Of a stretch of 50,180 bases of DNA, positions 15,201 to 50,180 are shown one piece after another. Below the pieces are notes generated by a model. That model saw nothing but the letters and a program-made list of their open reading frames with translations. It was not told the origin of the DNA and made no database searches. The translations under genes and the position numbers were made by a program. This DNA comes from Candidatus Zhuqueibacterota bacterium (GTDB lineage Bacteria; Zhuqueibacterota; Zhuqueibacteria; Residuimicrobiales; Oceaniaggregativiventaceae), in the NCBI GenBank assembly GCA_016929055.1, contig JAFGJN010000161.1:1-50180 (forward strand), written 5' to 3'. Numbering within the stretch: position 1 is the first letter of the stretch; each line of letters begins with the position of its first letter.

Positions 15201-16866
15201 AATACCCGATATGGATGCAGTGCGCCGAATTGTGGCGCAAAAAGAAGTCAATGACGCCGCTCGTGTTTTATACGAACGAAGCGCCGAAGCCTACCGAAAT
15301 GGTATTCAAGTCCTGAATCGCCTGGGATCGACTTATCGCTCGACACTTTTGCGCGAAGCGGAGACCGCAGCGTCGATTCCTGTCGACACGCTGGCGATCG
15401 TCGCTCAGGATACGATTCTGCGCGCGGTCGATCGCTGGTCGGTGCGAAGCAAAGAGAATCTATCGCAGGTCAATTTCGAATCGGCGGATATATCGCTGAA
15501 AACAGCACGAATCGTCGCCAATGCCCCCGTACCACCCGGATTGGGCGATTTCCCACAACTGGTCTATAAAAAACAGGTGATCGATTCTGTGGTGGTGCCC
15601 ATCATTCGCTCCAGCCTGGATGGCTATCGATTGTGTTTGATTGAAGCGGATTCCCTGCAGATAAATTCACAGTGGGTGGAATTGGCCAAGCAAAAGTTGG
15701 TGTCGACCAAGCATCTCGCCGCTTCTTATTACCAGGATTTAACCCGGCAGGGGTTTGATCTGATCGGAAAAAACTTTGATGCCTACAGCGATCGAGTCTT
15801 TGGCGAGGGATCCTTTGATGATCACTTTTATGACCTACAGGTAATTGCTCAGGATGCCACAAACTCGATCACCTTTTCGCTGGCAACGATCATGAACAGT
15901 CTGGACCGATATGCTGAGGCGATACGGTTGGCAGGCCGAATGGATATCGAGGAGCACTATATTGTCAGCAGTCGCGATTCTATGATGATCACCGCTTATA
16001 ATTTTGCCCTGCAAGCGGATTCTTTGAGTCGGTATTCCAAGCGTCTGGCGGATCAGGCGCGGGAAGGATTTCTCAAGACCGAATCCCTTTTATTGGAAGA
16101 GGGTTTGTTCGCGTTTAACAGCAATTATTTTGCCCTGCGCGATATGGAGCGCGAAATACTCGAAAACGGTTATTCCATGGCTCAGGATTTGGAAATAAGC
16201 AACCTCTATTCAAAAAATCTGACCTTGCAATTGGTCCGATTCGATCCGGAGGAGTATGCTGGTCTAATCGGTTTATCTATCTCCTCTTTTTCTGTTGTCA
16301 CCGACAGCAGTTGGAAAGCTTATCCCAACTATACGGAAGGCTGGACTCTCGGCGGTTTCGACGACTCGAATTGGGGTGCTGCCATGATTGTAGATCCGGC
16401 AGTGGATGACGCCTGGTCTGCAATTTGGGTGTTTGCAGAGAAAGATACGATCGTTTCCGCCACAGAGGAAGATTCGACGCAAGTTCATGTTCTTCTGCAG
16501 CCGGCAACAACGGCCTTTTTTCGCAAAGCGATCCTCGTTCAGGGATTGCCTGTCGGATGTACGATTCGGTACATCCCCCACCCGGATGTCACTCTCTTTT
16601 TCAATGGAGATTTGGTCAAACGTACCGAAGGAACAGATTTCAAGAATTCCGACGGAGTAGTCGATGTTTCAGAATTGCTGGTCGATGGTTCCAATGTATT
16701 GGCGGTGGAAGTCAAAGGAACTGAAGCGTCCACTCAGAAATTTTCGGCAAGAGTTGAGCTGCGCAGTTTGCCGGAATGGGATCAACGAGTCCGGATGCTG
16801 AATCCTGAATTTGCCGATAAAGAAACCCAGGAAAAGGTTCTGATCGAAAGAAGCCGCATTCCCTGA
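12286..16866 (+). CDS. Large exported TPR protein, GltD/AgmU-like, with a C-terminal jelly-roll domain
   Basis: Signal peptide (VRA|QE). ILMRLAELYYE, DDALYNIG, LMRIGEYHF, ALYRLGWCFY and ALFNAA TPRs typical of AgmU/GltD-type proteins. Confidence 0.75.
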   Translation: MNAKKIAHATLIGVFLLLALNGVRAQEPLVFTPHLQSLSLTDSVIQAFSIEELERFRSYYSRERERLKWEREELRKQGIRDAELFLSRNPRTRVGDKILMRLAELYYEQEQEEFSRRMQEYDRLYSLYERDQLDEAPPEPQRDFSRALVSYQTVVDRYSNSDLVDDALYNIGVLLEDSQDPDSALTIYQKIIKDFPESKLQPDVLMRIGEYHFNPPRNAVVRAIDYYQQVLAFKESPRYDEALYRLGWCFYRLSDYDKAISYFTILADDIQTVLSYDPLLKYTNPSLMDESVEYIGLSFLEKGGPDDAADYLRSIGGRDYGAAILRRMGDAYMQEKEDYPRAIRAFELIIEFYPNHAQAPTIQGHIVQCRRRMGEEALAFLARDLLFTRYREGSDWWDANIDKNAREQAYILSESALRDNVTFLFNRAQETDRGDLYYQMVTQSRRYLQTFPKDSSAALIHWNMALTLDTKLRQTGDAYNEYMRISTLYWNSQYQHYAAKNAVALAREAAEDTLAQVKKRVSEEKIVSLSDLADEAEKTGQARFNFRARMQLLETPLSLEEERLARAYDNYIKLFPHEEETPLFLANAGALYYRHHQFKNALKYFKTLLRHFPGSEQVNQARFAILESYFGNADFGSSEIVARRIIADPDASLELVSRARRRLAESIFLNAEMLAESDRHLEAGNEYRRMVNEAPESTFTDLALFNAALEYDKASEFMRAIETYTLLLATHPQSGYVYDAQNNLAFDYVELGDFHNAALTYERLADIHPEENKARDALYNSSFYFAKAEDWQNAIKINRLFLQRFPQDREAANLSFEIAGFHRQSGESDQAHQSLGDFIAGFPDHPRVIEAFFRRGNYLAERNQPLQAVSEYQKALSTNRERVQVGMESDDYYAAESEFAMAMLKYKEFEKIEFLLPSADMARTKERKKDLLLEIIRHLNNCTTFGTNRIYEATFMIGRAYQEFARTWSDQEIPDMDAVRRIVAQKEVNDAARVLYERSAEAYRNGIQVLNRLGSTYRSTLLREAETAASIPVDTLAIVAQDTILRAVDRWSVRSKENLSQVNFESADISLKTARIVANAPVPPGLGDFPQLVYKKQVIDSVVVPIIRSSLDGYRLCLIEADSLQINSQWVELAKQKLVSTKHLAASYYQDLTRQGFDLIGKNFDAYSDRVFGEGSFDDHFYDLQVIAQDATNSITFSLATIMNSLDRYAEAIRLAGRMDIEEHYIVSSRDSMMITAYNFALQADSLSRYSKRLADQAREGFLKTESLLLEEGLFAFNSNYFALRDMEREILENGYSMAQDLEISNLYSKNLTLQLVRFDPEEYAGLIGLSISSFSVVTDSSWKAYPNYTEGWTLGGFDDSNWGAAMIVDPAVDDAWSAIWVFAEKDTIVSATEEDSTQVHVLLQPATTAFFRKAILVQGLPVGCTIRYIPHPDVTLFFNGDLVKRTEGTDFKNSDGVVDVSELLVDGSNVLAVEVKGTEASTQKFSARVELRSLPEWDQRVRMLNPEFADKETQEKVLIERSRIP

Positions 16867-30643: not shown

Positions 30644-30741
30644 GTCGGGGGTCTCCACGCCGCACCGAGCGTGCCGTAAAGAGCGAGACTCGACGGCTAA
30701 CGGTGCTTGTCAATCATCGTGCGTGGAAGCGAGGAATTAAA

Positions 30742-32025
30742 ATGCAAGTATTTGTCAAAATCCGAGATCAACAGTACGGTCCCTATACATCTGCGGATCT
30801 CGAAAAGTTGGTACAATCTGGTCAGTTTAAAAGCGACGATCTGGTGTTCAGCGAGGATCAACAGGAGTGGATTCGCGCCGAGGATCATACCGCCTATCAA
30901 TCGCTTTTCCAGAACGAATCCCAATCGGAAAAAAAACGAACAGTTTTTGCTGTCGGTGGAGGCAAGGGTGGCGTGGGGAAAACAGTCATAACCGCTTCCC
31001 TTGGTGTCGGATTGGCGAGTTTGGGCAAACAGGTTGTGTTGGTCGATGCAGATTTAGGCGGCGCTAACCTGCATACCTGCATGGGGATTTTGGAACCCAA
31101 ATTCACCTTTTATCATTTTTACTCTTTACAGCGCGACACTCTGGAAGATATTCTGCTGGATACGCCGATTGAAAATTTGCGGCTGATCAGCGGTACCTGT
31201 GGAACGCTTGGCCTGGCTAATCCGCGTTATTCCCAAAAGCAACGCTTTATCTCATCGCTTAAAAAAATCAATGCGGATTATTTGTTGCTCGATCTGGGCG
31301 CTGGTTCTTCATATAACGTGATCGATTTTTTTCTAGCCGCTGACGATCGAATCGTCGTTACGACTCCCGAGCCGATGGCGGTTCAGGAAACGTTTAATTT
31401 TGTAAAGATTGCGATTTTTCGAGCACTGCAACGTTTGTTTCGTGATAATCAGACTGTCTTGTCGTTGCTGGACAATGACATGTTTGCCGAGCCAGGCAGG
31501 TTGGGAACAACAATGCAGCAATTGTTGCATCAAGTTGAAAAAGCCGATGCGCAGGCAGGTAAACAAATTGGAGAATTTTTAGACGGATTTCGCCCCCGCC
31601 TGATACTCAATATGGTGCACGATTCGGATGAGGCCAGGGAAGGCGTTGCATTAAAAACGGCCGTGCTAGAGTTGCTCGGTGTGCAGATGGAGTTCTTGGG
31701 CGTCATCGAGTACGACGAAAGCGTGCGAAACTCGGTGAAGGAACTCAAGCCCTTTCTCATCAACGACCCGCGCTCCAAGGCTTCCCGAAGTCTGGCGAAA
31801 CTGATTTCGGTCGGTTTGCTCAAGAAAACAGGCTGGAAAGGATTTAGAGAGCGCCGTCGCGTCATTCGTCAAGTCGCTGATGAAGCTCAATCCTATCCCA
31901 CAAACCAACTCAAAGAAAGTGATGTGATCTGTTCAGTTAACTGTTTTTATTGGGGTGATTGCGATTTTCAAAATGGCGGCTACCCCTGCCCGGTTCGCCA
32001 TTTGGATCCAATTTTTAAGAAATAA
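30742..32025 (+). CDS. MinD/FlhG-type P-loop ATPase with N-terminal GYF_2 (DUF4339) domain and C-terminal 4-Cys motif
   Basis: QQYGPYT..L..LVQSG....DLVF....EW (GYF_2), VGGGKGGVGKT, VDADLGGANLH, LDLGAG, VTTPEP, C-x3-C-x5-C-x8-C tail. ATG 30742 with GAGGA SD. Confidence 0.88.
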   Translation: MQVFVKIRDQQYGPYTSADLEKLVQSGQFKSDDLVFSEDQQEWIRAEDHTAYQSLFQNESQSEKKRTVFAVGGGKGGVGKTVITASLGVGLASLGKQVVLVDADLGGANLHTCMGILEPKFTFYHFYSLQRDTLEDILLDTPIENLRLISGTCGTLGLANPRYSQKQRFISSLKKINADYLLLDLGAGSSYNVIDFFLAADDRIVVTTPEPMAVQETFNFVKIAIFRALQRLFRDNQTVLSLLDNDMFAEPGRLGTTMQQLLHQVEKADAQAGKQIGEFLDGFRPRLILNMVHDSDEAREGVALKTAVLELLGVQMEFLGVIEYDESVRNSVKELKPFLINDPRSKASRSLAKLISVGLLKKTGWKGFRERRRVIRQVADEAQSYPTNQLKESDVICSVNCFYWGDCDFQNGGYPCPVRHLDPIFKK

Positions 32026-37599: not shown

Positions 37600-39021
37600 A
37601 TGGAAAAATCCCCACCGGATTATCAAGCGCTGTCTGAAAAGCTCGAAAAGATCGATCAAGTGCATCTCTTGGCTTTTTGGGACGAGTTGAATCGGGAACA
37701 ACGTCTGCACTTGGCCGAACAGATCGATGAACTCGACGCAGATCTGATCCTCGAGCTCTCCGATAAAGTCCTCAAAGATTCGGGCTCAGTAGAGAAGCCG
37801 GATCCCGATCTTAAGCCGGCAGATGTGATCCTTTTGGACGAACTGGCATGCGATCTGAAGCGCCAAAAAAAAGCCGTCGAGGTGGGAAATGAAACTCTGG
37901 CGGCCGGGCAGATAGGAGTCGTGGTGGTGGCCGGTGGCCAGGGAACCCGACTGGGATTCGATTCTCCTAAAGGTGTTTACCCCGTGGGGCCGATTACGAA
38001 CCGCAGTCTATTTCAGTACCACACCGAAAAAATTCTGGCGCTGGAAAAGCGGTTCGCTGTTTCAATCCCCTTTTGCATCATGACGAGCGAAGCAACCGAT
38101 CTGGAGACGCGGGAGTTTTTCGCCAGGAATCGATTCTTTGGGAAAACAAAAGATTCGGTTTACTTTTTTCGTCAGGGTATGTTGCCATCCTTTTCACCCC
38201 AGGGAAAAATCCTGCTTGAAAAAAAATGGCAAATCAGTCGTTCTCCGGACGGCCACGGCGGCCTTTTGAATGCTCTGAACCAACGCGGACTGCTGCAAAC
38301 ACTACAGGCAAAAGAAATCGGTTACCTCTATTATTTCCAGGTCGACAACGTGTTGACCCGCATCGGCGACCCCCTTTTTATCGGTCTGCACCGTTTGACG
38401 GCAGCCGATATTTCCAGTAAAACCGTGCGCAAACGCGATCCCGATGAAAAACTGGGAAATATCTGCAAGATCGGCGACCGGTATCGGGTCGTCGAATATA
38501 CGGAACTATCCGAGCAACAAAAAATGCAAAACGATGCGCAGGGCAATCCTCTGTTTGCGCAAGGCAGCATCGCCATTCATCTCTTCAACCTTTCATTTAT
38601 GCAGTCGCTGCTCGGACAAGATCGGCGGCTGCCTTTTCATCTGGCTCGTAAAAAAATTTCCTGTATCGACAAACACGGCAATCCGCTCGAACCAGAGGAA
38701 CCCAACGGTTACAAGCTTGAGCAGTTTATTTTCGATGCATTTGTCTATGCCGACAAAGTCACTGTTGTCGAAACCGAGAGAGAAAGGGAATTCAGTCCGA
38801 TAAAAAACGCTTCAGGGAATGATTCTCCCCAAAAGGCCCAACAGGATTTGTCCAACATTTTTGCCGACTGGTTGGAATTTTGTGGAATTTCTGTTAAGCG
38901 CGATTTAAAGGGCAATTCTCTTGAACCGATTGAGATCTCCCCTCTATATGCGGATCAGCCCGATCTTTTGTGCAAAAAAATTGCCGCAAATCCCGACGTA
39001 AATTCATTTTTGTTCGAATAG
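37600..39021 (+). CDS. UDPGP type 1 family nucleotidyltransferase (eukaryote-type UDP-GlcNAc pyrophosphorylase, UAP1-like)
   Basis: AGGQGTRLG...PKG, PDGHGG, QVDN, VEYTE, KLEQFIFD, REREFSPIKN. Confidence 0.9.
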   Translation: MEKSPPDYQALSEKLEKIDQVHLLAFWDELNREQRLHLAEQIDELDADLILELSDKVLKDSGSVEKPDPDLKPADVILLDELACDLKRQKKAVEVGNETLAAGQIGVVVVAGGQGTRLGFDSPKGVYPVGPITNRSLFQYHTEKILALEKRFAVSIPFCIMTSEATDLETREFFARNRFFGKTKDSVYFFRQGMLPSFSPQGKILLEKKWQISRSPDGHGGLLNALNQRGLLQTLQAKEIGYLYYFQVDNVLTRIGDPLFIGLHRLTAADISSKTVRKRDPDEKLGNICKIGDRYRVVEYTELSEQQKMQNDAQGNPLFAQGSIAIHLFNLSFMQSLLGQDRRLPFHLARKKISCIDKHGNPLEPEEPNGYKLEQFIFDAFVYADKVTVVETEREREFSPIKNASGNDSPQKAQQDLSNIFADWLEFCGISVKRDLKGNSLEPIEISPLYADQPDLLCKKIAANPDVNSFLFE

Positions 39022-39071: not shown

Positions 39072-42000
39072 ATGCATGAATCAGAAAACAGCACCGTTTC
39101 CCAGCGGCGCGGCAGAAAAAAAATCCGACGCTGTCTTAAAAAAATCCTCTTCTTTATGGTTGGAGCGGGATTCTTGTTCAGCGTTGCTCTGGTGGTTGCG
39201 GTGCGTATTTTTTTCCCGCCTGAACGTTTGAAAGATATGGCGATCGTTGCAGCAGAGAAAGAACTGGGAAGACGTCTTTCCATTGGCGAGGTAGCATTCA
39301 ATCCGTTAAAGGGATTTCAATTTCGGGATCTCCACCTCACTTCGATATCGGATTCCCTTGACCGCGAATATCCCTTGCCGGTACGCGAAGCTTTTATTCG
39401 TTCGATGAGTATGCGTTATTCGTTGCGCGCAGTATTGCGAAAACACCTCGTATTAAAGAGTTTCTCTATCGATCATCCCCGACTCGTGTTGTTTCTCAAT
39501 TCGGAACTTGCTTCCAGGTCGGACGCCAAAGCGGATACGACCGCGGCTGTTGGTCTGGATCAATTGGTTCTGCCCGTCAGGCTGGATTTGCGGTCGATCG
39601 CTGTCAGGGAGGGGAGCTTTTCGATCGTCGTCAGGGATTCTTTGTCGGATACGCGCATCCAAATTGACTCCATCAGCCTGTTTCTGAGAGACGTCTCAAT
39701 TCCCCGTGGTCCGGTGATTTCCGATTCGACTCTTTTGCGCGGCAAAGTGCATTTGCTCGCCGATCAATCGCGGCTGAATTTCGAACAGGATGTCCGCTCG
39801 CCCGCCTCGCAAGCCACGCGTTTCCGGACGCTTCTCCAGGCCGATATTGGGTTGGAAATCAAAGGAATCGACAACGTCCAAACCTCAGTGAAAATCGATC
39901 TCCATGAGAGCTCTTTTTCATATCACGACAACGCCACCAGAATGGCACAAGAGTTGTCTCCTGTTGTCGGACTCGAGCTGCAGGCAACTGCTGATTTGCT
40001 GGATACATTGATCAATGTGCAGCAGCTGGCTTTCACACTCGATCGTCACCCCTGGTTGCAGCTTAAAGGACGGTTGGCACAGGTGGCCGAGGGAACGGCT
40101 GTCGATGTTCGAGTGAACGAGAGCCGCATTCCTTTTATCGGACTCTATAATCTGGCCAGCGATTGGATTCCCGGAACGAGGCTGATTCATTGGCACAATC
40201 CGAAAAGTGAGTTCACTCTTAAAGACAGCCAGGTACGCGGAATTCTGATAAACCGTCATAAAGAGCCTGACCTTACATTTCAGGTTCGGATGGCAAGTGA
40301 TGATTTCGGCATAACGATCAATCACGGCGAACAAGAGGTCGATCGATTCAGGGTCATCGCATCAGCTGATGGGCGGATCACCTCGTCCGGAATGGCTGAT
40401 CTGCATGCGGCTGTTCAGATGGGGGTGGATTCTCTCTATGTCGAATTGCCCGACGACTTGCTTTTAACAAGCGGCAAGATATCGTTGCAGGGGGAAACAC
40501 GTCTCGATTCCACACAAATGCCGGTGAAACTGGCATTGGGTATGACAGCTCGAAACCTGATGCAGGCAAATTTAGACGTGTATGTCGATTTGGCAGGTGA
40601 TCATTTCCAGTCTTTGTCCGGTTCTGCCAATGTGGGGCTGAAAAATATTCGCCCTCAGGTGGTGCCGGATCTACCGCTCCGCACCACCTTGTCCGCCGAT
40701 CTGGAAATAGATTTCAATACGCTCGATAAAATCAAAGGTGCCTTGAAGGTCAAAAGCGATTCCCTCTTTTATGTCGCGGACAAATCTCTCGGTTTTCCGC
40801 CAATCGCTCTTTCGACCGATTTTCAGGCACGTGTCGACCTGTCGGCTCAAGAGGCCCGAATCGATACCCTTCGGCTGCATCTCAATAATGTGCTCTCGGC
40901 AATGCTCCGGGTCCGGGTTTCGCCCCAGGATTTTCAAGTGAATCTCGACGAGCTGGCCATTGAGCATCAACCCCTTTATCGCTTGATTCCCCGTGAGATG
41001 CGTGAACAACTTTACGATCTTCGGCTGAGCGGATCCACCCACATTACGGCCCAAGCAAAAGGCAGGCAAAGCGATTCGCCGCCTTCATTTCAGCTCAAGG
41101 GTCGTGTGCATACGGCAAATACGCGTGTCGATTACCCCAGCCAGGGATTGACTCTCGATGGCGTGCATCTCGATCTAGACCTTGAATCCCATTCGACAGG
41201 ATCGACCCTGCTGTCGACTGTCCTGTCGATCGATGATATTTGTCTTGAATTCGAAAAGACGTTGCGCTATCGCAACAATCGTTTGTCATTCGGTGTCCAA
41301 ACACAAGACGGATCGACCGTCCACTTGAGGGATGGGCGGCTCGAACTTCCCGATCTTTCTGCTTCAGGCCATTTTGCGGCTATTTTGGAACAGTTGTCCG
41401 AAAATATCCGTTTCAGCGGTCAAGTCGAATTCGATCAGGCCATAGCCGACACCATTTATGTGGCTGATTTGCTGGGGATGCACGGGAGTCAGAGATTCTC
41501 GCTCAATTTTTTTGGCGATACGACCAAAGTCGATGTCAAGGCATTTTATACCGCCGAACACCTTGACTTGCTGTTGCCTGGAGAGACGATTGTGCGCGAC
41601 TTGAATGCACGTCTGGTAATCGAACAGGGCGTCGATCTGCTCAGTAGTCGCCTGCTCGCTCGAGAGGCTACGGCGATTCTAACCCCTTCGGACGCCGCTC
41701 TGGATTACCAGGTTTTGCGCGACTATTACCGAGCTGTCCTTAAAAATCGGTCAACGCTGTCGATCGCTTCCATCGAAGCGGCGGGTTATCGAATAAGCGA
41801 TGTCGCCGGAGAGATGTATCTGGGCGAAGGATGGATCGAAGTACCCTTTCTCCAGGCCAGCGCTTATGGAGGAAATCTTGTCGGCCGAATCGGTCTCGAT
41901 TTGGCATCCGGCGATTTACGACATGCTGTTTATACGTTATCGGCTCATTTCACGGAAGTCAATTCGGAACTGTTTTTGCCGGAAGAAAAAAACAAGGATG

Positions 42001-42374
42001 GCCGTGGTATAATCAACGGCAATTTAACCCTGAACGGCAACGGAGTCGACCCGGAATATGGCATGATGATCGGTGGGTATTTTTATCTCACCGAGATTGG
42101 CCCCCGTGTGGTTTTGAATCTATTGCGGGCGCTGGATCCCCAGGGAACCGATACCGGCATCGGGCTGACCCAACAGTTGATCGGTTGGGGCTTCAAACCC
42201 AGCCTGATGAGCTTTTTCATTCGGCACGGCTACTTTTATCCAGCCATCCATTTCGCACAACCCTGGTATTTTCCGGTTCGCCTGAGTCAGGGGAAAGTCG
42301 AGTTGTCGCGTGTGCCTGTGAAATTTTTTCTGCAGACCGCTTTGCGGCCGCCGAGCCAAACAATGACGAGGTAG
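39072..42374 (+). CDS. AsmA-like/YdbH-like intermembrane beta-taco protein
   Basis: Basic N-terminus and single TM, AEKELGRRLSIGEV AsmA_N-like segment, about 1000 aa of amphipathic beta strands, LQASAYGGNLVG motif. Followed by a DUF1318 gene. Confidence 0.75.
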   Translation: MHESENSTVSQRRGRKKIRRCLKKILFFMVGAGFLFSVALVVAVRIFFPPERLKDMAIVAAEKELGRRLSIGEVAFNPLKGFQFRDLHLTSISDSLDREYPLPVREAFIRSMSMRYSLRAVLRKHLVLKSFSIDHPRLVLFLNSELASRSDAKADTTAAVGLDQLVLPVRLDLRSIAVREGSFSIVVRDSLSDTRIQIDSISLFLRDVSIPRGPVISDSTLLRGKVHLLADQSRLNFEQDVRSPASQATRFRTLLQADIGLEIKGIDNVQTSVKIDLHESSFSYHDNATRMAQELSPVVGLELQATADLLDTLINVQQLAFTLDRHPWLQLKGRLAQVAEGTAVDVRVNESRIPFIGLYNLASDWIPGTRLIHWHNPKSEFTLKDSQVRGILINRHKEPDLTFQVRMASDDFGITINHGEQEVDRFRVIASADGRITSSGMADLHAAVQMGVDSLYVELPDDLLLTSGKISLQGETRLDSTQMPVKLALGMTARNLMQANLDVYVDLAGDHFQSLSGSANVGLKNIRPQVVPDLPLRTTLSADLEIDFNTLDKIKGALKVKSDSLFYVADKSLGFPPIALSTDFQARVDLSAQEARIDTLRLHLNNVLSAMLRVRVSPQDFQVNLDELAIEHQPLYRLIPREMREQLYDLRLSGSTHITAQAKGRQSDSPPSFQLKGRVHTANTRVDYPSQGLTLDGVHLDLDLESHSTGSTLLSTVLSIDDICLEFEKTLRYRNNRLSFGVQTQDGSTVHLRDGRLELPDLSASGHFAAILEQLSENIRFSGQVEFDQAIADTIYVADLLGMHGSQRFSLNFFGDTTKVDVKAFYTAEHLDLLLPGETIVRDLNARLVIEQGVDLLSSRLLAREATAILTPSDAALDYQVLRDYYRAVLKNRSTLSIASIEAAGYRISDVAGEMYLGEGWIEVPFLQASAYGGNLVGRIGLDLASGDLRHAVYTLSAHFTEVNSELFLPEEKNKDGRGIINGNLTLNGNGVDPEYGMMIGGYFYLTEIGPRVVLNLLRALDPQGTDTGIGLTQQLIGWGFKPSLMSFFIRHGYFYPAIHFAQPWYFPVRLSQGKVELSRVPVKFFLQTALRPPSQTMTR

Positions 42375-42381
42375 ATTCGAC

Positions 42382-42942
42382 ATGATACAAAAATATGTTT
42401 TGACCGCGCCATTTGCTGCGGTGATCGCTCTTTGTTTGGGTTGCAGCATTAAAGCGCCGGAAATTGTGGTGACCGGTGAAAAGACCGCCCTGGAAAACCA
42501 GATGCTGGGACGCTTCGAAAATATTGAAAGCGCAAATGATGTCATCGCTTCAACGCGCTCGATCGATCCTTTGCCCGAGGGCTATACATCCTCGAGTGTA
42601 CTCGAGGCCATCGAGAATCAGAGGCTTCGGCGCGACGAACTGGATGAACTCAAAAGACAGCATCTGGTGGGCGAAGCCAATGACGGTTTTTTGGCGGTTA
42701 TCAACTCGGAGCGTTATGAAAAGGATCCGATTTTGCAGGACAGAGTCGATCGTCTCGTCGCCCAGGAAAACAATGATCGCAGAACGGTTTTTAGCCGGAT
42801 TTTGACGCTGTATGGGGCCGAGTCGGCAAAAAATGATTCTGCCATCCGTCAGCAGCTGGTGCGGCTGTATGCGGATGACTCTCAAGCCGGCACGATGGTT
42901 CAGATGCCCGGAGGCGAATGGGTGGAAAAGCAAAAACGGTAA
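42382..42942 (+). CDS. Lipoprotein with DUF1318/YdbL domain
   Basis: Lipobox CLGC. LDELK..HLVGEANDGFL, LVAQENNDRR.VF and GTMVQMPGGEWVEK are YdbL-family motifs. Confidence 0.85.
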   Translation: MIQKYVLTAPFAAVIALCLGCSIKAPEIVVTGEKTALENQMLGRFENIESANDVIASTRSIDPLPEGYTSSSVLEAIENQRLRRDELDELKRQHLVGEANDGFLAVINSERYEKDPILQDRVDRLVAQENNDRRTVFSRILTLYGAESAKNDSAIRQQLVRLYADDSQAGTMVQMPGGEWVEKQKR

Positions 42943-43126
42943 GGTACGGTTTTTCTGCCAACAGCTGAGCGGATCGATGCCGGCTCACCGATGTTCAATT
43001 CGGGGACATCAGTTATTTTATGTGTACAATGGTTGGTTCTTTGTGTTATCTAGATTGTGAATTGTTCAGGCTAGTTTGTTTTTCACTAGTTAAACAAAGC
43101 GTCAAGAATCTGTTTGGACACCAATA

Positions 43127-46100
43127 ATGTCGGCTAATTATCGAAAAAATTTCCTGCAACCGGTGGTCTTGATATTACTGTATGCGTTCTCGACAAGGGC
43201 GATGCCGGTGTCTTTGCAGGAACCCCTTCAGGTAACCACCCATCCGGATATCGATTTGACTCCCCGGGTTTCATCTGACGGGAAATGGGTGGCCTATGTC
43301 AACCGACAGGCCGCCAATTATGACATTTGGATCACCAGTACAAGCGGAGGACGATCCCACCAAATCACTTTTCATAAGGCCGATGATCTCTATCCCGCCT
43401 GGGGGCCGGACAGCCGTACACTGGTTTTCGTTTCCCAGCGCAGCGACGCGGCCGGTGATATTTATCGTCTCAAATTACGGCAGGTGGGAGACAGACTGGT
43501 GCCCCGCGGGGAACCGGAACAAATCACCTTTTACCGCGGCTATGACGGTTATCCGACGGTATCTCCCGACGGCAAGAAAATTGCCTGGGTCTCCGACCGA
43601 TCGGGTCGTGAAGAGCTCTGGTTTTTTAATTACAACACCAGCAAAACGCTGCAATTGACCTTTCTTGGAGGAACCCATCCAGCTTGGAGTCCGGTGCAGG
43701 ATCTGCTGGCTTTTACCTCCTTTCGCGGAAGCGATCGAAATCAAGGCGATATCTATCTTATTCATCTCAAGGGGCCACGACCGACTCTGGCAGATGCGCC
43801 GCTGAGCGACAATCGAGAGTACCCGACCTATCAATTGACCCGGGGAACCGCGCTCGATGGTTTTCCCAGTTGGTCGTTAGATGCCAAGGCATTGTTTTTT
43901 CTGCGCTATGACAGAGATAGCAATGCTGACGGTATCATCAGTCCGGCGGATGTCGGAAATATCTGGCGGGCCGATGTCCATGAATTTCCGCAAGCAGCGG
44001 TCGAGCGCGATTCCCTTTATCCCGGTTTGAATCGATCGTTCAATCTTCGGCTTATCAGCAATGCCTACCCCCTCACCTGGTCGATGGTGCAGCAACTGCA
44101 GCCTTGGGGAGGTGCTGATGATCGAGTCTATTTTTCCAGCAATGAAAAAGGGAATCTGGATGTCTGGTCCGTTCCGATGGATGGTATCGTGCCTTTGATG
44201 GATTTCGTCGGCGACCAATTCTCTCTGGCGCAAACGATCGAGCTGCCCGACGGACTTGCTCCCTCCGGATCGACGATGCTTTTAACCGATGTCGATCCCG
44301 ATTCCTTGAATAGAGAATCACAACAGAAGATTTGGAATCGGGCATTGGCTTTTCGCCGGGTCATCGATTTTCACGGTCTAGGTCATCCCTATGCGGCCGC
44401 CGCGCTGTATGAACAGAGCCTCTGCCTCTTTTTCCTTGGTCGAAATGACCAAGCCGAGTCAGCTCTCGAAACGGTCTTGCAGCGTTTTAACGACAATCGC
44501 CGGGTTGCGGTCTATGCCGAAATGGCTCAACTTGAAATTCGCAGCCGAAATGAAGCTCCGGCAAAACGTCAGATAATTCTGCGTCAGGGTATGGCAGCGA
44601 TTTCCCGCAAGTACGCCGATCAGGAACGACCATCGGCGGAAGCGCAAATGGCCATCGGTCACCTTTTCGGCCATGAAGGACGAATCGATGAGGCTCGAGA
44701 CAGCTATGCGGCTGTTCGCTCCCGTTTTCCCCTGTTGCGCGACCTGGGGGCCGAAAGTCTTTTTCGTATCGGCAGATTGACAGAACAACAGGGCGAACGC
44801 CAAGAGGCACTCGAGATTTATCGTCGAGTGTGGAGGGATTATCCGGATCAAACGCGCTGGATTCGAGCAGCCCGCGATCAAATCCTGAAGGCAGAGGACG
44901 ATCGAGTTTTATCGATAGCCGATCGGAAAAGACGACTCGAGGCGTTAATTCTGGCCTATCCCGAAGACCCTCAGATTGTTGCAGAGGCTAGGCTGCGACT
45001 GGCTGATTTGGTTTTTCAGCAAAATGATTTTGAACAAGCATTGGCGGCTTTTCAAGCCCTCGAGCGGGATTTCCCCGAAAGCGAACAGGCGCACATTGCT
45101 CAGATCGCTCAGGCGCAAGGCCTATTCAAACTGGGCCGGAGCGATGAGGGCTATGATCGCCTGAACCGACTCATCGAGAAACATACAGAAAAGCGACCGG
45201 AATTCGCCCGCCAAGCCCGGGTAGCGCTTTTGCAGGCATTGTTGACCACTGCAGATGAGTTCAAGTCAACGCACGAGTATTCACAAGCCAGCCTGCGCTA
45301 TCAGCGCGCCAAAGATGTGGATCCCCGCTCATTGCATGCCCATCGGGGATATATCGAATGCGCCTATCGAATGCGCCGTATCGATGCCGTCGTGTCGGAA
45401 TATCGGCAAATTTCGGCAAATCAACGCGACAACATCCTGATCTATGCACTCGGTCTGGCTTTGTCTTATCAGGCGACCGAAAAAGTCGAGTTGGACGGAG
45501 ATCCAGGCGGATATCGCGCCGATCTTTTGGCCGAGTCCAGTGCGACAATCGCCCGAGCCTTGTCGTTTGACTATTCACTGGTCGAGGGCTATTTGACAAT
45601 CGCGTTCAATTATGAAATGATGGAATACCATCTCGCCCGGCAAAAGAGCAAGCCTAAAAGTTTTTCCCGCAGATTATTTGAAAGTATTGCGGCTCCACCG
45701 CGGGAGCTCTATCGGACCATAACCTTTCAACGCGAAGGCAAACCTCCGCGTTACGCCGAGCGTGCCATACACGAGTTGATCAAGGCTCTTGCCCTTAACG
45801 ATGAAAAGGAAAATTCTACCCTCGAGGCGGTTATTGCCATGAATTTGGCAAACAATTATTACCACCTCGGCGAGTACGGGTTGGAAAAGGCTTATGAATA
45901 CTATCGCATCAAACTGGCGAACGATACCACCTTTACCGATCCCAGACGAGAGGCTCTGATCTATGAGCGTTTGGGACACGCTTCTCTGGTCGTTCGGGAT
46001 TATGAAAACGGATCGCGATATCTGCGCCGGGCAATCGATCTTTACGGTCGGCTAGAGCGACCGGATAAAGTGTATTTGTGCACCAAACGCCTCGCTCTTC

Positions 46101-49100
46101 TTTATCAAGATGCTCATGAGCCACAATCTGCGATCGAGCAATTTATTCTGGCCGCCGAGTATGAAGGAAAAAATCGACGCCAAAGCGAGCTGATGATCAG
46201 CCTGCGCAGCATTGCTTACAATTATCTGGTAGATGGACAAATCGACAAGGCGATTGTATATGCGCGTCAGGCTCTGGAACTGATTGATTCAGGCCGGGTT
46301 AAGACTGTGGAGCATGAGGCCAAGCGGATCCAGCTCGGCTTTCTCGGTCTCTATGCACCACTACCCTTTGTCGATTTAACCCCTGTGGGTTCAGCCCGCG
46401 TTCACGGGTTAACCACGCGCGACGAACGCGCTCTAATCTATTCCATCCTCGGATCCAGCTATCGTGAACTGAAAAGCTATTCGGCCGCCATCGACTATTT
46501 GCAAAAGAAACTGGAAATATTTTCCGATGAAAAGGATCCCTATGCTGAAGCGGCGTTTTTAAATAACCTGGGTTATTTGTATCATCTGGATGGCAACCTG
46601 CAAAAAGCCCGGTATTATTTCGAGCGTTCTCTTGACGTGTGCAAAAAACATGGTCTTAATCACGGCTGGGTTACCAACAGTGTGAACCTCAGTCGGGCGG
46701 TACAGAGTGAGAAAACTGCCTTAATCCCCATTTCTTTCGGTTCGGCTTCTGACCTCATCGAAGCCGAGGAACACGCTGTTACAGAGCTGCGCCTGGCCAT
46801 TGAAACGTTCAGCACTGTTTTTGGGATGGAACGGCAGGTTGTACGAGCACAGCTGGAATTGGGCGAACTGCTTTTAAATGGGACAATCCGTCAGAATGGC
46901 GATCGATCTGTTGGAACGATCCATCACAGTTTTGTGCAGCTTGCCGAGGCGCAGACCCTGTTACAGGAAGCGTTGAATACAAGTTTGCGGCGAAAATTGC
47001 AGCGTGAAGAATGCGCCGCTAATTATACGCTTGGTCGTATTGCGGATAGGGCAGGCGACGCTGAAGAAGCCTATCGTCTGCTTTCGCGTAGCCGTTGGCT
47101 GGCGCTCAATTTGGGCTATTTCGATCTGTTGTGGCGAGTCGATTGCCTTTTGGGTGATGTCGTCGATGGAATCGGTTGGCAGCGACAGCAAGAGCTTGGA
47201 ATCACCGGCCATCCTCTGGAGTATTATGCGGAAGCGATCCAAGTCGTTGAATCGCAACCCTTGATTGACGACGGGCAAAGCGGCACAGAACTCAGACGTG
47301 CCAGGCAACTGCCCTATCTGCGCGAGGCTGCTTTTCTTTTGGACTTGGGATTGGTGGATGACGCATTGAACGCGGTTGAACGCCAGCGGGAAAGGCAGTT
47401 CCGCGATCTTGTTCCGTTGTCTGATTTTCCTGGCGCCGATGAACAGAGCGATGAATGGTTCCAATCGGCAATCGACTACCAGACAAACATCAATCGGCTA
47501 GAGCTGTCGCTAATGCAATTGCAGACCGGCAGTGAAAGAGCCAGACTCAAGCGTGAATTGCTCGCCACTCGGGATTCCTATGCCCGGTTTTTAAAGGACA
47601 TCCGCCGTCTGGAACCACAATTGGCCTGTCTGATCGAGCCTGAAACCGTCACTGTGAATGCGGTGCAACAGAATCTCGGTGCGGGAGACATCGTGCTCTA
47701 TTTTCATGATTTGGCAGGGATTATACAGGTGTGGACGGTTACGTCGGAGGATATCGATGCGCGACCGCTTTCATTGACCTCGGCCGAAATGGAACAAGCC
47801 TTTATCGCTGATGATCCGGAAGCACGCCAACGAGTCTCCACCGTTTTTTCTTCCATCCTGCAGCGCCCAGAGTTCCAGCGAGTCGTGTTGATACCGGATC
47901 CATCGTTACTTATTTATCCATGGACCTCTTTTTGGATGCAAGCCGATACATTGCGAAGGCCCCTTGTTCTGGCTTCGAGTTTGAGCGGATTGATGACATC
48001 CTTAAAAAATCGTCGGCATTCGGGGACGCGCATTTTTCTCTCCTCGGAAGAATTTGTTGATCGGCTCTCTGCACTTGATTTTACAACCTTTATGCCGGTC
48101 AGAAATCCCGCAAACAACAGTTTTGCCGATCAAGTCGGATATCTGCGGAGCGCCGACATCGTCCATCTCAAATTACAGGCCGAGTGGAATCATTTGAATC
48201 CGGCGCTGAGCAAAATGGGTTTTTTTGTTCGCGGTTCACAACCAGCCGTCTTTACACCACTTGAGTTGTTTGCTCTGCGATTGGATGCAGGCTTGGCGAT
48301 TTTGCACTTTACAAGTCCGCTCGATGCAAGGGTCGCTGCCGAATCTTTTCTATTATTGGAACGCGCTCTCTATTGCAGCGGTGTGAACGCTGTTATGATT
48401 CTGTCGCAACCGGAAAGCGAAATTGATGATTTTCTTATGCGCTTTTATAATGTCTGCAGCCAACAGCCGATCATCCCTGCTTTTATGGAGGCGAAAAGAG
48501 GCGCCGAGAACAGCTCCCAACTCTATGGATTCGCGGCCTCGACGCCGGACGAGGTCGAGGCTGTTTATGCCGAATTGCGTTCCGCTTTTGAACGAGCGGA
48601 ACAACACAGCCGCGAGCAACGCTGGGAAAAAGCTATTCAATTCTATCAACAAGCGTTGCGTGAAGCCAGACAGGACAGAGATCGGCTCAAAACTATTCAT
48701 ATGGGTTTGTTGAGCGCGGCGATTGGTACGGCGAACTGGCCTCTGGCCATAGACAGTCAAAGCGCTTTGCTGCAGATGGCACAGCAAAGACAAAATCGAA
48801 CCGATATCGCCACAGCGGGTTTTAGTCTGGCCGTTTTGCATCGCCGCAACAGCGAAGAGCAAACCGGTCGCGCGATAGAGAATCAATGGAGTCGTTTTTC
48901 GCAACGGTATGGCTTGCAGATACAGCAAGCAGAGGCATATGAATATCTGGCTACCATCGCTGCGAGGTGCGGCAATGCTTCGTTGGCGATCGATTGGTTC
49001 GAGCAGGCGCAAAAGCTTTTTGTAGCTTTGGGCGACGCCAAAGGCGCAATACGCTGTCGGGTTGAATTGGCCGGTATCGCCCTCGATCATTACCGGGAAC

Positions 49101-50180
49101 CCCTGCTGGTCATCGATACCCTGACACCCCTTCTCAAAGCCTTTTCAAATCACGGCGACACACTTTTGCACATGAATGCCCTGAACTTGCGCGCTCGGGC
49201 TCTGGAAGAATTGGGCAATTTGCATTCAGCCCTGGCAGACCGACAGTCCCTGTATCAGCTCCAGTTATTAACTGAAAAGCATCCGTGGGGTCGTGTTTAT
49301 CTGGATCTGGCCCGCCTCCATTTTCGCATGGGAGATATTCGTTCCGATTATTTACAGCGCGCTTTGGGTGATGAGGATGACGGGGTTCAGGTGGCCGCCG
49401 AAATGCTGCAGGCGGAAATAGATTTGCAGCTCGAACGTCCGAAAATGGCTTTGCAGCGGCTTCAGGATCTCCATCATCGTCTGTCCGGACGCGCCCTGGG
49501 TGATCTTTATGACCTCGAGGCCCGTATTCGGGTTCGGCAGGGTTTGCTGGAATTCGCTTTGCAGAGTCTTCAACTCGCCGCCGATACTGACTCGACCGAT
49601 ATCGCTTTGCTCTTTGATCGCATGGCAAATTACGCGCTTTTGGCCCATGCCATGAATGAACAATCAGCTGCACTTGAGGCGGTCGATAAATGCCGTGACC
49701 TGGCTTTTGCTCTGGCCGAGCCGGTACGCGATTTGGTTTATCGTTTTATTTTTTTAATGATTCAAGAAAGCGATTCATCTGCCGCAAACAAGATCTCTGC
49801 CTGGAAAAAATTGAGTGAGGATGCGCAGGCACTAGCCCTTCCGGAGATTGTCTGGCGTTGTTCGATGGAGACGCTTGTCGTTTTGCCGCCAGAAAAGAGA
49901 GCGGCAGAGTTTGAAAAAGCGATGACCTTTCTACAGGATTCATTCGAGGATCTAGTCGCTTTTTGGGTGTTGCGGGAGATTCGTCCGGCGCAGAAATTTT
50001 TCCATGAATGCGTTACTGAACTTTTGCAGCAAGGCCTGATGACAAAAGCCTGGCGTATCAGCAGCCAGGCGATGGCTCACGAATTTAGACAGGCCAACGC
50101 CAAGCGACCGATGGTTTTCGCGAATGGAGACGAGAATTTTGCCTGGAACTCGTTGGTACGCGCCCGCGAAGAATTCAATC
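43127..50180 (+). CDS. Giant exported protein (>2350 aa, 3'-truncated): PD40/TolB-like propeller, TPR array, degenerate CHAT domain, second TPR array
   Basis: I hand-translated segments from ATG 43127. They show a signal-like N-terminus, repeats PRVSSDGKWVAY, PAWGPDSRTLVF, PTVSPDGKKIAW, PAWSP and PSWS, TPRs, and a CHAT-like VVLIPD..L..YPW region. No ORF in this frame closes in the supplied track, consistent with run-off. Confidence 0.9.
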   Translation, partial: MSANYRKNFLQPVVLILLYAFSTRAMPVSLQEPLQVTTHPDIDLTPRVSSDGKWVAYVNRQAANYDIWITSTSGGRSHQITFHKADDLYPAWGPDSRTLVFVSQRSDAAGDIYRLKLRQVGDRLVPRGEPEQITFYRGYDGYPTVSPDGKKIAWVSDRSGREELWFFNYNTSKTLQLTFLGGTHPAWSPVQDLLAFTSFRGSDRNQGDIYLIHLKGPRPTLADAPLSDNREYPTYQLTRGTALDGFPSWSLDAKALFFLRYDRDSNADGIISPADVGNIWRADVHEFPQAAVERDSLYPGLNRSFNLRLISNAYPLTWSMVQQLQPWGGADDRVYFSSNEKGNLDVWSVPMDGIVPLMDFVGDQFSLAQTIELPDGLAPSGSTMLLTDVDPDSLNRESQQKIWNRALAFRRVIDFHGLGHPYAAAALYEQSLCLFFLGRNDQAESALETVLQRFNDNRRVAVYAEMAQLEIRSRNEAPAKRQIILRQGMAAISRKYADQERPSAEAQMAIGHLFGHEGRIDEARDSYAAVRSRFPLLRDLGAESLFRIGRLTEQQGERQEALEIYRRVWRDYPDQTRWIRAARDQILKAEDDRVLSIADRKRRLEALILAYPEDPQIVAEARLRLADLVFQQNDFEQALAAFQALERDFPESEQAHIAQIAQAQGLFKLGRSDEGYDRLNRLIEKHTEKRPEFARQARVALLQALLTTADEFKSTHEYSQASLRYQRAKDVDPRSLHAHRGYIECAYRMRRIDAVVSEYRQISANQRDNILIYALGLALSYQATEKVELDGDPGGYRADLLAESSATIARALSFDYSLVEGYLTIAFNYEMMEYHLARQKSKPKSFSRRLFESIAAPPRELYRTITFQREGKPPRYAERAIHELIKALALNDEKENSTLEAVIAMNLANNYYHLGEYGLEKAYEYYRIKLANDTTFTDPRREALIYERLGHASLVVRDYENGSRYLRRAIDLYGRLERPDKVYLCTKRLALLYQDAHEPQSAIEQFILAAEYEGKNRRQSELMISLRSIAYNYLVDGQIDKAIVYARQALELIDSGRVKTVEHEAKRIQLGFLGLYAPLPFVDLTPVGSARVHGLTTRDERALIYSILGSSYRELKSYSAAIDYLQKKLEIFSDEKDPYAEAAFLNNLGYLYHLDGNLQKARYYFERSLDVCKKHGLNHGWVTNSVNLSRAVQSEKTALIPISFGSASDLIEAEEHAVTELRLAIETFSTVFGMERQVVRAQLELGELLLNGTIRQNGDRSVGTIHHSFVQLAEAQTLLQEALNTSLRRKLQREECAANYTLGRIADRAGDAEEAYRLLSRSRWLALNLGYFDLLWRVDCLLGDVVDGIGWQRQQELGITGHPLEYYAEAIQVVESQPLIDDGQSGTELRRARQLPYLREAAFLLDLGLVDDALNAVERQRERQFRDLVPLSDFPGADEQSDEWFQSAIDYQTNINRLELSLMQLQTGSERARLKRELLATRDSYARFLKDIRRLEPQLACLIEPETVTVNAVQQNLGAGDIVLYFHDLAGIIQVWTVTSEDIDARPLSLTSAEMEQAFIADDPEARQRVSTVFSSILQRPEFQRVVLIPDPSLLIYPWTSFWMQADTLRRPLVLASSLSGLMTSLKNRRHSGTRIFLSSEEFVDRLSALDFTTFMPVRNPANNSFADQVGYLRSADIVHLKLQAEWNHLNPALSKMGFFVRGSQPAVFTPLELFALRLDAGLAILHFTSPLDARVAAESFLLLERALYCSGVNAVMILSQPESEIDDFLMRFYNVCSQQPIIPAFMEAKRGAENSSQLYGFAASTPDEVEAVYAELRSAFERAEQHSREQRWEKAIQFYQQALREARQDRDRLKTIHMGLLSAAIGTANWPLAIDSQSALLQMAQQRQNRTDIATAGFSLAVLHRRNSEEQTGRAIENQWSRFSQRYGLQIQQAEAYEYLATIAARCGNASLAIDWFEQAQKLFVALGDAKGAIRCRVELAGIALDHYREPLLVIDTLTPLLKAFSNHGDTLLHMNALNLRARALEELGNLHSALADRQSLYQLQLLTEKHPWGRVYLDLARLHFRMGDIRSDYLQRALGDEDDGVQVAAEMLQAEIDLQLERPKMALQRLQDLHHRLSGRALGDLYDLEARIRVRQGLLEFALQSLQLAADTDSTDIALLFDRMANYALLAHAMNEQSAALEAVDKCRDLAFALAEPVRDLVYRFIFLMIQESDSSAANKISAWKKLSEDAQALALPEIVWRCSMETLVVLPPEKRAAEFEKAMTFLQDSFEDLVAFWVLREIRPAQKFFHECVTELLQQGLMTKAWRISSQAMAHEFRQANAKRPMVFANGDENFAWNSLVRAREEFN

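Follow-up and report, generated by a model that had tools for sequence, protein, structure and literature searches.

A 50,180-nucleotide (nt) stretch of DNA from Candidatus Zhuqueibacterota bacterium (GenBank assembly GCA_016929055.1, contig JAFGJN010000161.1) carries three adjacent genes that form a conserved unit, inherited, moved and lost together across the phylum. They encode an AsmA-like protein, a DUF1318 protein and a giant protein, for which we use the working names P1, P2 and P3, and we consider it probable that the three make up a single envelope module, a relative of the E. coli YdbH-YnbE-YdbL bridge with a different construction. The stretch, hereafter the window, is an entire contig of a draft genome of 366 contigs (90.5% complete). 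The listing of open reading frames (ORFs) confirmed that the genes are co-oriented on the plus strand, as a first-pass annotation made from the sequence had reported: P1 occupies 39072–42374 (1100 residues) and P2 42382–42942 (186 residues), and P3 begins at 43127 and is still open at 50179 after 2351 residues. P1 and P2 are separated by 7 nt (42375–42381) and P2 and P3 by 184 nt (42943–43126). Since the window is the whole contig, the P3 gene is cut by the assembly. Full-length orthologues of all three ORFs occur in dozens of genomes, and these are therefore real genes rather than chance ORFs.

We surveyed the trio in 40 relatives from the same order and in 167 genomes from the phylum. In the order, P3 and P1 were each found in 35/40 genomes and P2 in 34/40 at E ≤ 1e-5 (35 if a fragment in genome G037 is counted), and the same five genomes lacked P1, P2 and P3. 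Among 20 order loci fetched, all of those holding the three genes had them in the order P1-P2-P3 on one strand (18/18), the remaining two being halves of one G037 locus split between contigs; the P2 and P3 ORFs often overlapped. Across the phylum, P3 was present in 113 genomes, P2 in 119 and P1 in 120. P2 and P3 occurred together in 111, P2 alone in eight, P3 alone in two and neither in 46, and five of the eight P2-only genomes belong to one family (f10), two examined loci of which carry a short P3 of 1,636–1,646 residues. P2 and P3 were adjacent in 93/111 genomes, P1 and P2 in 80/115, and the trio was contiguous in 68; leaving aside two unpublished genomes that the survey includes (G158 and G162), the adjacencies are 93/109 and 80/113. 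The first-pass expectation that the giant gene would be conserved beside the AsmA/DUF1318 pair thus holds in most relatives.

Adjacency of this kind could also arise if P1 and P2 were a YdbH/YdbL-type pair and P3 a vertically inherited neighbor with an unrelated periplasmic role (e.g. Tol-Pal-like or peptide-processing), and several observations weigh on that side and against a single module. The upstream Lon and UDPGP genes are conserved too, in 13 and 14 of 18 loci, as is GlgC downstream, and with such high background synteny adjacency within the order is weak evidence alone. In the window, the 184 nt parting P3 from P2 hold a weak terminator-like site (42990–43010) and a promoter-like site (43003–43030), neither above shuffle expectation. 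Adjacency is not obligatory either, since the genes are dispersed in genera g68–70 of family f15 and in Delongbacteria, where 3/3 genomes hold all three families unlinked. The 2×2 presence table overstates the association because related genomes are not independent, and P2-P3 gap lengths were extrapolated from match starts. Finally, P1 has no specific sequence resemblance to YdbH, nor the P2 N-terminus to YnbE, which leaves fold class, gene context and the YdbL domain as the basis of the analogy to E. coli.

The stronger evidence for linkage comes from rearrangements and joint loss rather than from adjacency within the order. Families f11–13 keep P2 and P3 adjacent though P1 and UDPGP lie elsewhere, and family f15 keeps P3 near P1, in the order P3, a FecR-domain gene and then P1, though P2 has relocated, lying either just upstream or elsewhere; in families f16–18, additional genes stand between P1 and P2. 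Where P2 and P3 are adjacent, the extrapolated gap was ≤60 nt in 53/93 cases, and several loci have overlapping ORFs, which also argues against a mere neighbor, as does the joint absence of P2 and P3 in 46/167 genomes against their joint presence in 111. Joint loss is seen within genus g11, where genome G014 reads Lon-UDPGP-P1-P2-P3 while G030 reads Lon-UDPGP-GlgC, with 7 nt from UDPGP to GlgC, and G032 is similar. The latter genomes keep Lon-UDPGP and GlgC directly joined, the whole trio having been cut out from between flanking genes that stayed. Taking these observations together, we regard an unrelated role for P3 as unlikely.

Several loci show further variations on the arrangement. Comparison of the g11 loci (L110 9707–14998 against L019 3–15490) shows that nature has deleted P1-P2-P3 cleanly and nothing else. 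In f15, where P3 precedes P1, an exported protein of ~260 residues is encoded between the two in 3/3 loci (L083 6721–7545, L084 6229–7020 and L085 11540–12316), and in two of the three loci it was confirmed to match the FecR domain. One lineage carries two genes between P1 and P2 (L074 2579–5069, L075 2821–5137 and L080 2677–5007), encoding a ~280–345-residue protein without a Pfam match and a ~500-residue lipoprotein with a sub-threshold match to solute-binding proteins. In genomes G012 and G036, a multi-pass membrane protein of 512–519 residues that matches PMT_2 (GT39-type glycosyltransferase) is encoded between P2 and P3 (L018 5683–7221 and L021 6892–8451), and spacing indicates a third case in G020. 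At locus L088 of genome G135, P1 lies apart from P2-P3 with a UDPGP-like ORF ~0.8 kb upstream of it. The P2-P3 pair also occurs in a metagenome-assembled genome of Caldithrix sp. (L073). The Delongbacteria homologues of P2 share its lipidated N-terminal motif (L097 8874–9446, L098 9607–10176 and L099 3104–3685), and their gene stands by itself, away from the P1- and P3-like genes, its neighbors being a dapB-like gene and a convergent ~1,290-residue ORF.

P2 resembles E. coli YdbL. It bears an L-G-C lipobox with Cys21, which is kept in 28/29 aligned relatives, the single exception being a row trimmed too short. The lipidated N-terminal segment (residues 21–65) starts with a strongly conserved C-S-I/V-K-A-P-E-x-x-V-T-G-E-K-T-A-L-E-N-Q stretch and is followed by a DUF1318/YdbL-like domain at 42631–42930 (residues 84–183), which matched Pfam DUF1318 (PF07027) with 46.1 bits against a cut-off of 27. 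A search of the whole genome returned P2 as its sole DUF1318 gene (47.2 bits). The claim of a DUF1318 lipoprotein 7 nt downstream of an AsmA-like gene is thereby borne out. In the predicted structure of P2, residues 70–186 have a predicted local distance difference test score (pLDDT) above 90. The only significant Foldseek match of this model in the PDB was the E. coli YdbL crystal structure 28oj, from 2026 (E 2e-4; probability 1.00; TM 0.72 on the target); querying the PDB with P2 by sequence or by profile gave no significant match. By hhalign, P2 aligned with E. coli YdbL at 92.6% probability, placing its invariant W180 and K183 opposite YdbL W104 and K107, two residues that a preprint describes as predicted in the YdbH-YdbL contact (bioRxiv 10.64898/2026.03.16.712125). 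Given the lipobox cysteine, the DUF1318 match, the YdbL fold and the aligned Trp and Lys, we identify P2 as a lipid-anchored YdbL-type protein.

Whether P2 also contains a counterpart of YnbE is a separate matter. Residues 1–85 matched no lipoprotein family in Pfam even at E ≤ 10, and the N-terminal segment aligned with YnbE by hhalign at only 1.7%, over the lipobox region only. We therefore rejected P2 as a YnbE-YdbL fusion by homology; such a fusion is at most a functional conjecture. Nor is there a separate ynbE gene, which would encode a lipoprotein of ~60 residues, between the bridge and YdbL genes, the P1-P2 gap being only 7 nt. Small ORFs do occur in the 184-nt spacer, but they cannot be conserved genes, since most relatives have no room for them, P2 and P3 there being abutting or overlapping.

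P1 is, as judged by its predicted structure, an AsmA-like, repeating-beta-groove protein of the lipid-bridge type, with a single N-terminal anchor and a predicted periplasmic domain. It scored 34.3 bits against Pfam AsmA (PF05170; cut-off 29.8), over residues 24–185 only, and 41.2 bits against DUF748, under that model's cut-off of 50; in a six-frame search of the whole genome the P1 site reached only 17.5 bits against the AsmA model. The putative membrane helix (39114–39212, residues 15–47) is predicted both by the model and by a basic-then-hydrophobic N-terminal pattern common to 19/19 orthologues, and it supports the annotation of P1 as anchored in the inner membrane. An AlphaFold2 model built with the 19 orthologues (mean pLDDT 82.5) placed ~55 long beta-strands after this helix. 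Foldseek matched the model to LPD-3 (9cap_A; E 4.6e-8, probability 1.00) and to an N-terminal fragment of Vps13 (6cbc; probability 1.00), with global TM-scores that were low, as expected for long flexible rods. A long beta-groove rod with these matches supports the beta-taco fold that the first-pass annotation had anticipated for the 1100-residue protein. Conservation within P1 is highest over the C-terminal 230 residues. The genome also holds a second, longer AsmA-family gene (G000:C254:413–877; open frame of 1312 residues), which beats P1 on PF05170 and is probably a TamB- or YhdP-type paralogue.

The description of P1 as YdbH-like stands for its fold class and gene context and fails for its sequence. 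Against E. coli YdbH, a P1 profile gave an hhalign probability of 0.2%, with no specific similarity, and residues 301–1100 returned only weak AsmA and T2SSN matches from Pfam at E ≤ 10, with no YdbH-type family. Orthology of P1 with YdbH was rejected on these grounds.

The N-terminus of P1 weakly matches models of GspN, a protein of type II secretion systems (T2SS): TIGR04411 with 20.6 bits (cut-off 50) and T2SSN with an E-value of 0.0094. An AsmA-like GspN is reported in a 2025 mBio paper to act in lipoprotein surface transport (PMC12802150), which raises the alternative that P1 is a conduit for lipidated cargo other than bulk phospholipid, either the acyl chains of P2 (with P3 bound), as proposed for GspN, or a glycolipid. 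A glycolipid would suit the UDPGP gene upstream, the GlgC-like genes downstream and the PMT_2-type gene lodged between P2 and P3 in two genomes. However, the GspN matches are below cut-off and confined to the N-terminal anchor region, a part common to all AsmA-like proteins, the two models span 280 and 211 positions whereas P1 is about four times that length, and no T2SS genes were present among the ten neighbors scanned. The sugar-nucleotide genes, for their part, remain where the trio has been excised and are therefore independent of it. We consider a different lipidated cargo improbable.

P3 continues beyond the window. Another contig of this genome, C332, ends in a 393-residue frame (L034 1492–2673, minus strand) that overlaps the last four P3 residues of the window and brings the total to ~2,740 residues, in keeping with full-length orthologues of 2,650–2,830 residues. 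The protein begins with a signal-peptide-like sequence without a lipobox cysteine (43127–43201, residues 1–25, as read from the sequence), and a hydrophobic stretch followed by a QVTTHPD motif was found in 19/19 orthologues. Next come a PD40 (TolB-like) beta-propeller at 43214–44206 (residues ~30–360) and a TPR solenoid at 44564–46726 (residues ~480–1200), which includes a YbgF/CpoB-like stretch (residues 487–578) and a highly conserved block (residues 720–1120). Pfam gave PD40 at 92.7 bits together with many TPR families. The NCBIfam matches were to TIGR02800 (TolB propeller; E 1.3e-27, 96.8 bits against a cut-off of 343.15) and TIGR02795 (YbgF-like TPR; E 7.2e-15, 55.6 bits against 90.1). 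The propeller is among the two most conserved parts of P3, with a column conservation of 0.66–0.72. A search of the ESM Atlas with residues 1–1250 returned only unnamed PD40 clusters. The first-pass description of a signal-peptide protein with a TolB-like propeller and TPRs is well founded on these data.

The CHAT fold that was also ascribed to P3 stands as remote homology. Pfam CHAT (PF12770) was silent on the part of P3 in the window, even at E ≤ 10 for residues 1340–1840, though a profile of residues 1480–1830 aligned by hhalign with the Pfam-positive C-terminal CHAT domain of the orthologues at 99.3% probability (E 3.2e-20; 293 columns). We place this middle domain at 47720–48541 (residues ~1532–1805). 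A second TPR region with weak matches follows at 48554–50179 (residues ~1810–2351) and precedes a C-terminal CHAT domain on C332; full-length orthologues likewise end in a strong Pfam CHAT domain preceded by TPRs (E 8.8e-74 in L010). Searches of the PDB by sequence and profile with the middle domain and with the C-terminal CHAT profile gave no significant match.

The catalytic residues of these domains have had different fates. In none of the 19 aligned orthologues does the middle domain have the catalytic His or Cys, and in this P3 the His column holds Gln; we therefore term it a pseudo-CHAT domain. In the C-terminal domain on C332, placed by alignment with its same-genus relative G001, the His is kept and Ala replaces the Cys; G001 has lost the dyad too. 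Elsewhere the C-terminal His-Cys dyad is kept in 9/17 order-level orthologues and in 34/37 further ORFs, whose sources were Delongbacteria, other families and named records; the two sets share some genomes. The L022 protein is one orthologue with an intact dyad. Some lineages lack the whole C-terminal module, P3 being 1,815 residues long in L015 and 1,636–1,646 in f10. In view of the conservation and of these losses of the dyad or module, the conserved core of P3 comprises the propeller, the TPR block at residues 720–1120 and the pseudo-CHAT domain. Judging by these residues, proteolysis cannot be an essential conserved activity of P3. The caspase-fold switch that the first-pass annotation suggested cannot be catalytic in this organism, where both CHAT domains lack the catalytic Cys; with that residue lost, P3 would be only a non-catalytic scaffold, or pseudo-protease.

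NLR-like conflict and defense systems commonly combine TPRs with CHAT, and PADLOC returned a TPR-model match for P3, yet we rejected the reading of P3 as a defense protein lying beside envelope genes by chance as very improbable, since the match is to a generic TPR model only, is also obtained with a full-length orthologue and has no equivalent for P1 or P2, while P3 has a signal peptide and periplasmic-type PD40 propeller in 19/19 orthologues, is single-copy at a fixed position in 20/26 families of the phylum rather than patchy, and has lost its catalytic residues in several lineages with the rest of the protein kept.

Two known groups of proteins come closest to P3. With TolB and CpoB/YbgF of the Tol-Pal system it shares a periplasmic PD40 propeller and a YbgF-like TPR stretch, and its gene adjoins one for an outer-membrane-type lipoprotein (P2), much as TolB pairs with the lipoprotein Pal. 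It differs in scoring far under both equivalog cut-offs, in having the propeller and TPRs fused to ~2,000 further residues, and in its setting, where no tolQRA genes were present among the ten neighbors scanned. TPR-CHAT caspase-like proteases (PF12770), of which the CRISPR-associated TPR-CHAT is an example, resemble the P3 orthologues in ending with TPRs and a strong CHAT domain whose dyad is mostly kept. Unlike these, P3 is exported, starts with a propeller and has tandem CHAT modules, the first always dead and the second Cys-less here and absent in some lineages. Public relatives of P3 carry generic labels such as 'CHAT domain-containing protein' and 'Tol biopolymer transport system component'. 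Depositors assigned relatives to candidate division KSB1, Ca. Zhuqueibacterota or Calditrichota, and a protein search returned one relative of 2,581 residues labeled Deltaproteobacteria.

The pair P1-P2 at the core of the unit represents a variant of the YdbH-YnbE-YdbL type. In E. coli (PMC11126948; bioRxiv 10.64898/2026.03.16.712125), as here, a gene for an AsmA-like beta-groove protein lies directly upstream of one for a DUF1318/YdbL-fold protein, and the C-terminal Trp-x-x-Lys of YdbL also occurs in P2. The differences are substantial. YnbE is present in E. coli, whereas the trio has neither a ynbE gene nor detectable homology to it; YdbL is a soluble periplasmic protein, whereas P2 is lipidated and ~80 residues longer; and YdbH has 879 residues against the 1100 of P1, with no detectable specific similarity. 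The E. coli bridge also has no giant partner, as the first-pass annotation had stated and as the E. coli gene context and the published account agree, whereas here the unit includes a third gene, for a protein of ~2,740 residues. That giant partner is outside any described system we found.

The data show the structure of the genes, the identities of their domains, the predicted folds, the conserved linkage and the joint loss; how such a module might work is our inference. P1 would be anchored in the inner membrane and extend its beta-groove rod across the periplasm, the architecture proposed for phospholipid transfer to the outer membrane; scaled against published figures for YdbH, its 1100 residues may nearly span the periplasm. 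P2 would probably reside in the outer membrane and could cap or dock the far end of P1 through its YdbL domain, combining roles that E. coli splits between the lipoprotein YnbE and the soluble YdbL. P3 may be a periplasmic scaffold that binds P2 and positions or regulates the bridge, P2 appearing to be its tightest genomic partner, in that P2 adjoins P1 in most lineages and P3 in even more. A complex prediction with alignments for P3 residues 27–800 and P2 residues 21–186 scored 0.00 in two runs made with no controls, and counts neither for nor against a contact.

In relatives with an intact dyad, the C-terminal CHAT domain could cleave a component of the module. Such a protease could control stoichiometry in a manner comparable to that of DegP, which is reported to clear free YdbL in E. 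coli. Extending this, we can suggest, tentatively and as a reading we hold to be doubtful, that a giant with Tol-Pal-like modules and caspase-like domains, by docking on a lipidated protein of the YdbL type, determines the place and time of assembly of an AsmA-like bridge, by proteolysis in most lineages and by scaffolding where the nucleophile has been lost. If true, P3 would be dedicated to regulating the flow of bulk lipid to the outer membrane, and E. coli has no such regulator.

The regulation and transport of bulk phospholipid to the Gram-negative outer membrane is a still-open question in the field. The current candidate lipid bridges are the AsmA-like proteins YhdP, TamB and YdbH, and the role of YdbL in E. 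coli has been defined only recently. Against this background, the locus represents a widespread alternative design, with a lipid-anchored YdbL domain, no YnbE and a giant propeller/TPR/caspase-like companion, and the way the three genes are kept, moved and lost together across a little-studied phylum points to an undescribed cell-envelope machine. Should the link between the three proteins be physical, P3 would be a candidate regulator of intermembrane lipid transport and, as a caspase-fold protein in the periplasm, a rarity. Dyad loss, loss of the C-terminal module and excision of the trio in one genus amount to natural experiments on the core of the giant.

We found no published description of the trio, although supplements could hold gene tables. 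Literature searches returned no paper joining DUF1318 with AsmA, and the DUF1318 literature that was found is unrelated. A search combining the CHAT domain with periplasm, TPR and lipoprotein gave papers that, by title and the start of the abstract, were unrelated, and one combining 'AsmA-like' with CHAT gave nothing relevant by title. The main text of the paper describing the phylum Zhuqueibacterota does not mention CHAT, AsmA, lipoprotein or outer membrane. In a search for related loci, a single-protein query retrieved none and an alignment query retrieved matches.

Upstream of the trio, among the ten neighbors scanned, the window carries ordinary genes for TrkH/TrkA, Hsp20, Lon and, next to P1, a UDPGP-family sugar-nucleotide pyrophosphorylase (37600–39021, plus strand; Pfam UDPGP, E 7.3e-42). 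The UDPGP gene stands directly upstream of P1 in 28/40 loci with enough upstream DNA, a count in which some genomes were fetched twice, and excision of the trio leaves it in place. It could work together with P1 or simply be a stable neighbor. On C332, a GlgC-like nucleotidyltransferase gene (L034 181–1449) follows the end of P3. Two metatranscriptome runs of the same study contained next to no sequence words of the locus. Elsewhere in the window, two large ORFs of 958 and 1526 residues lie on the plus strand at 9313–12189 and 12286–16866, and a single ORF at 30703–32025 joins an N-terminal GYF_2 domain to a ParA/MinD-type P-loop ATPase.

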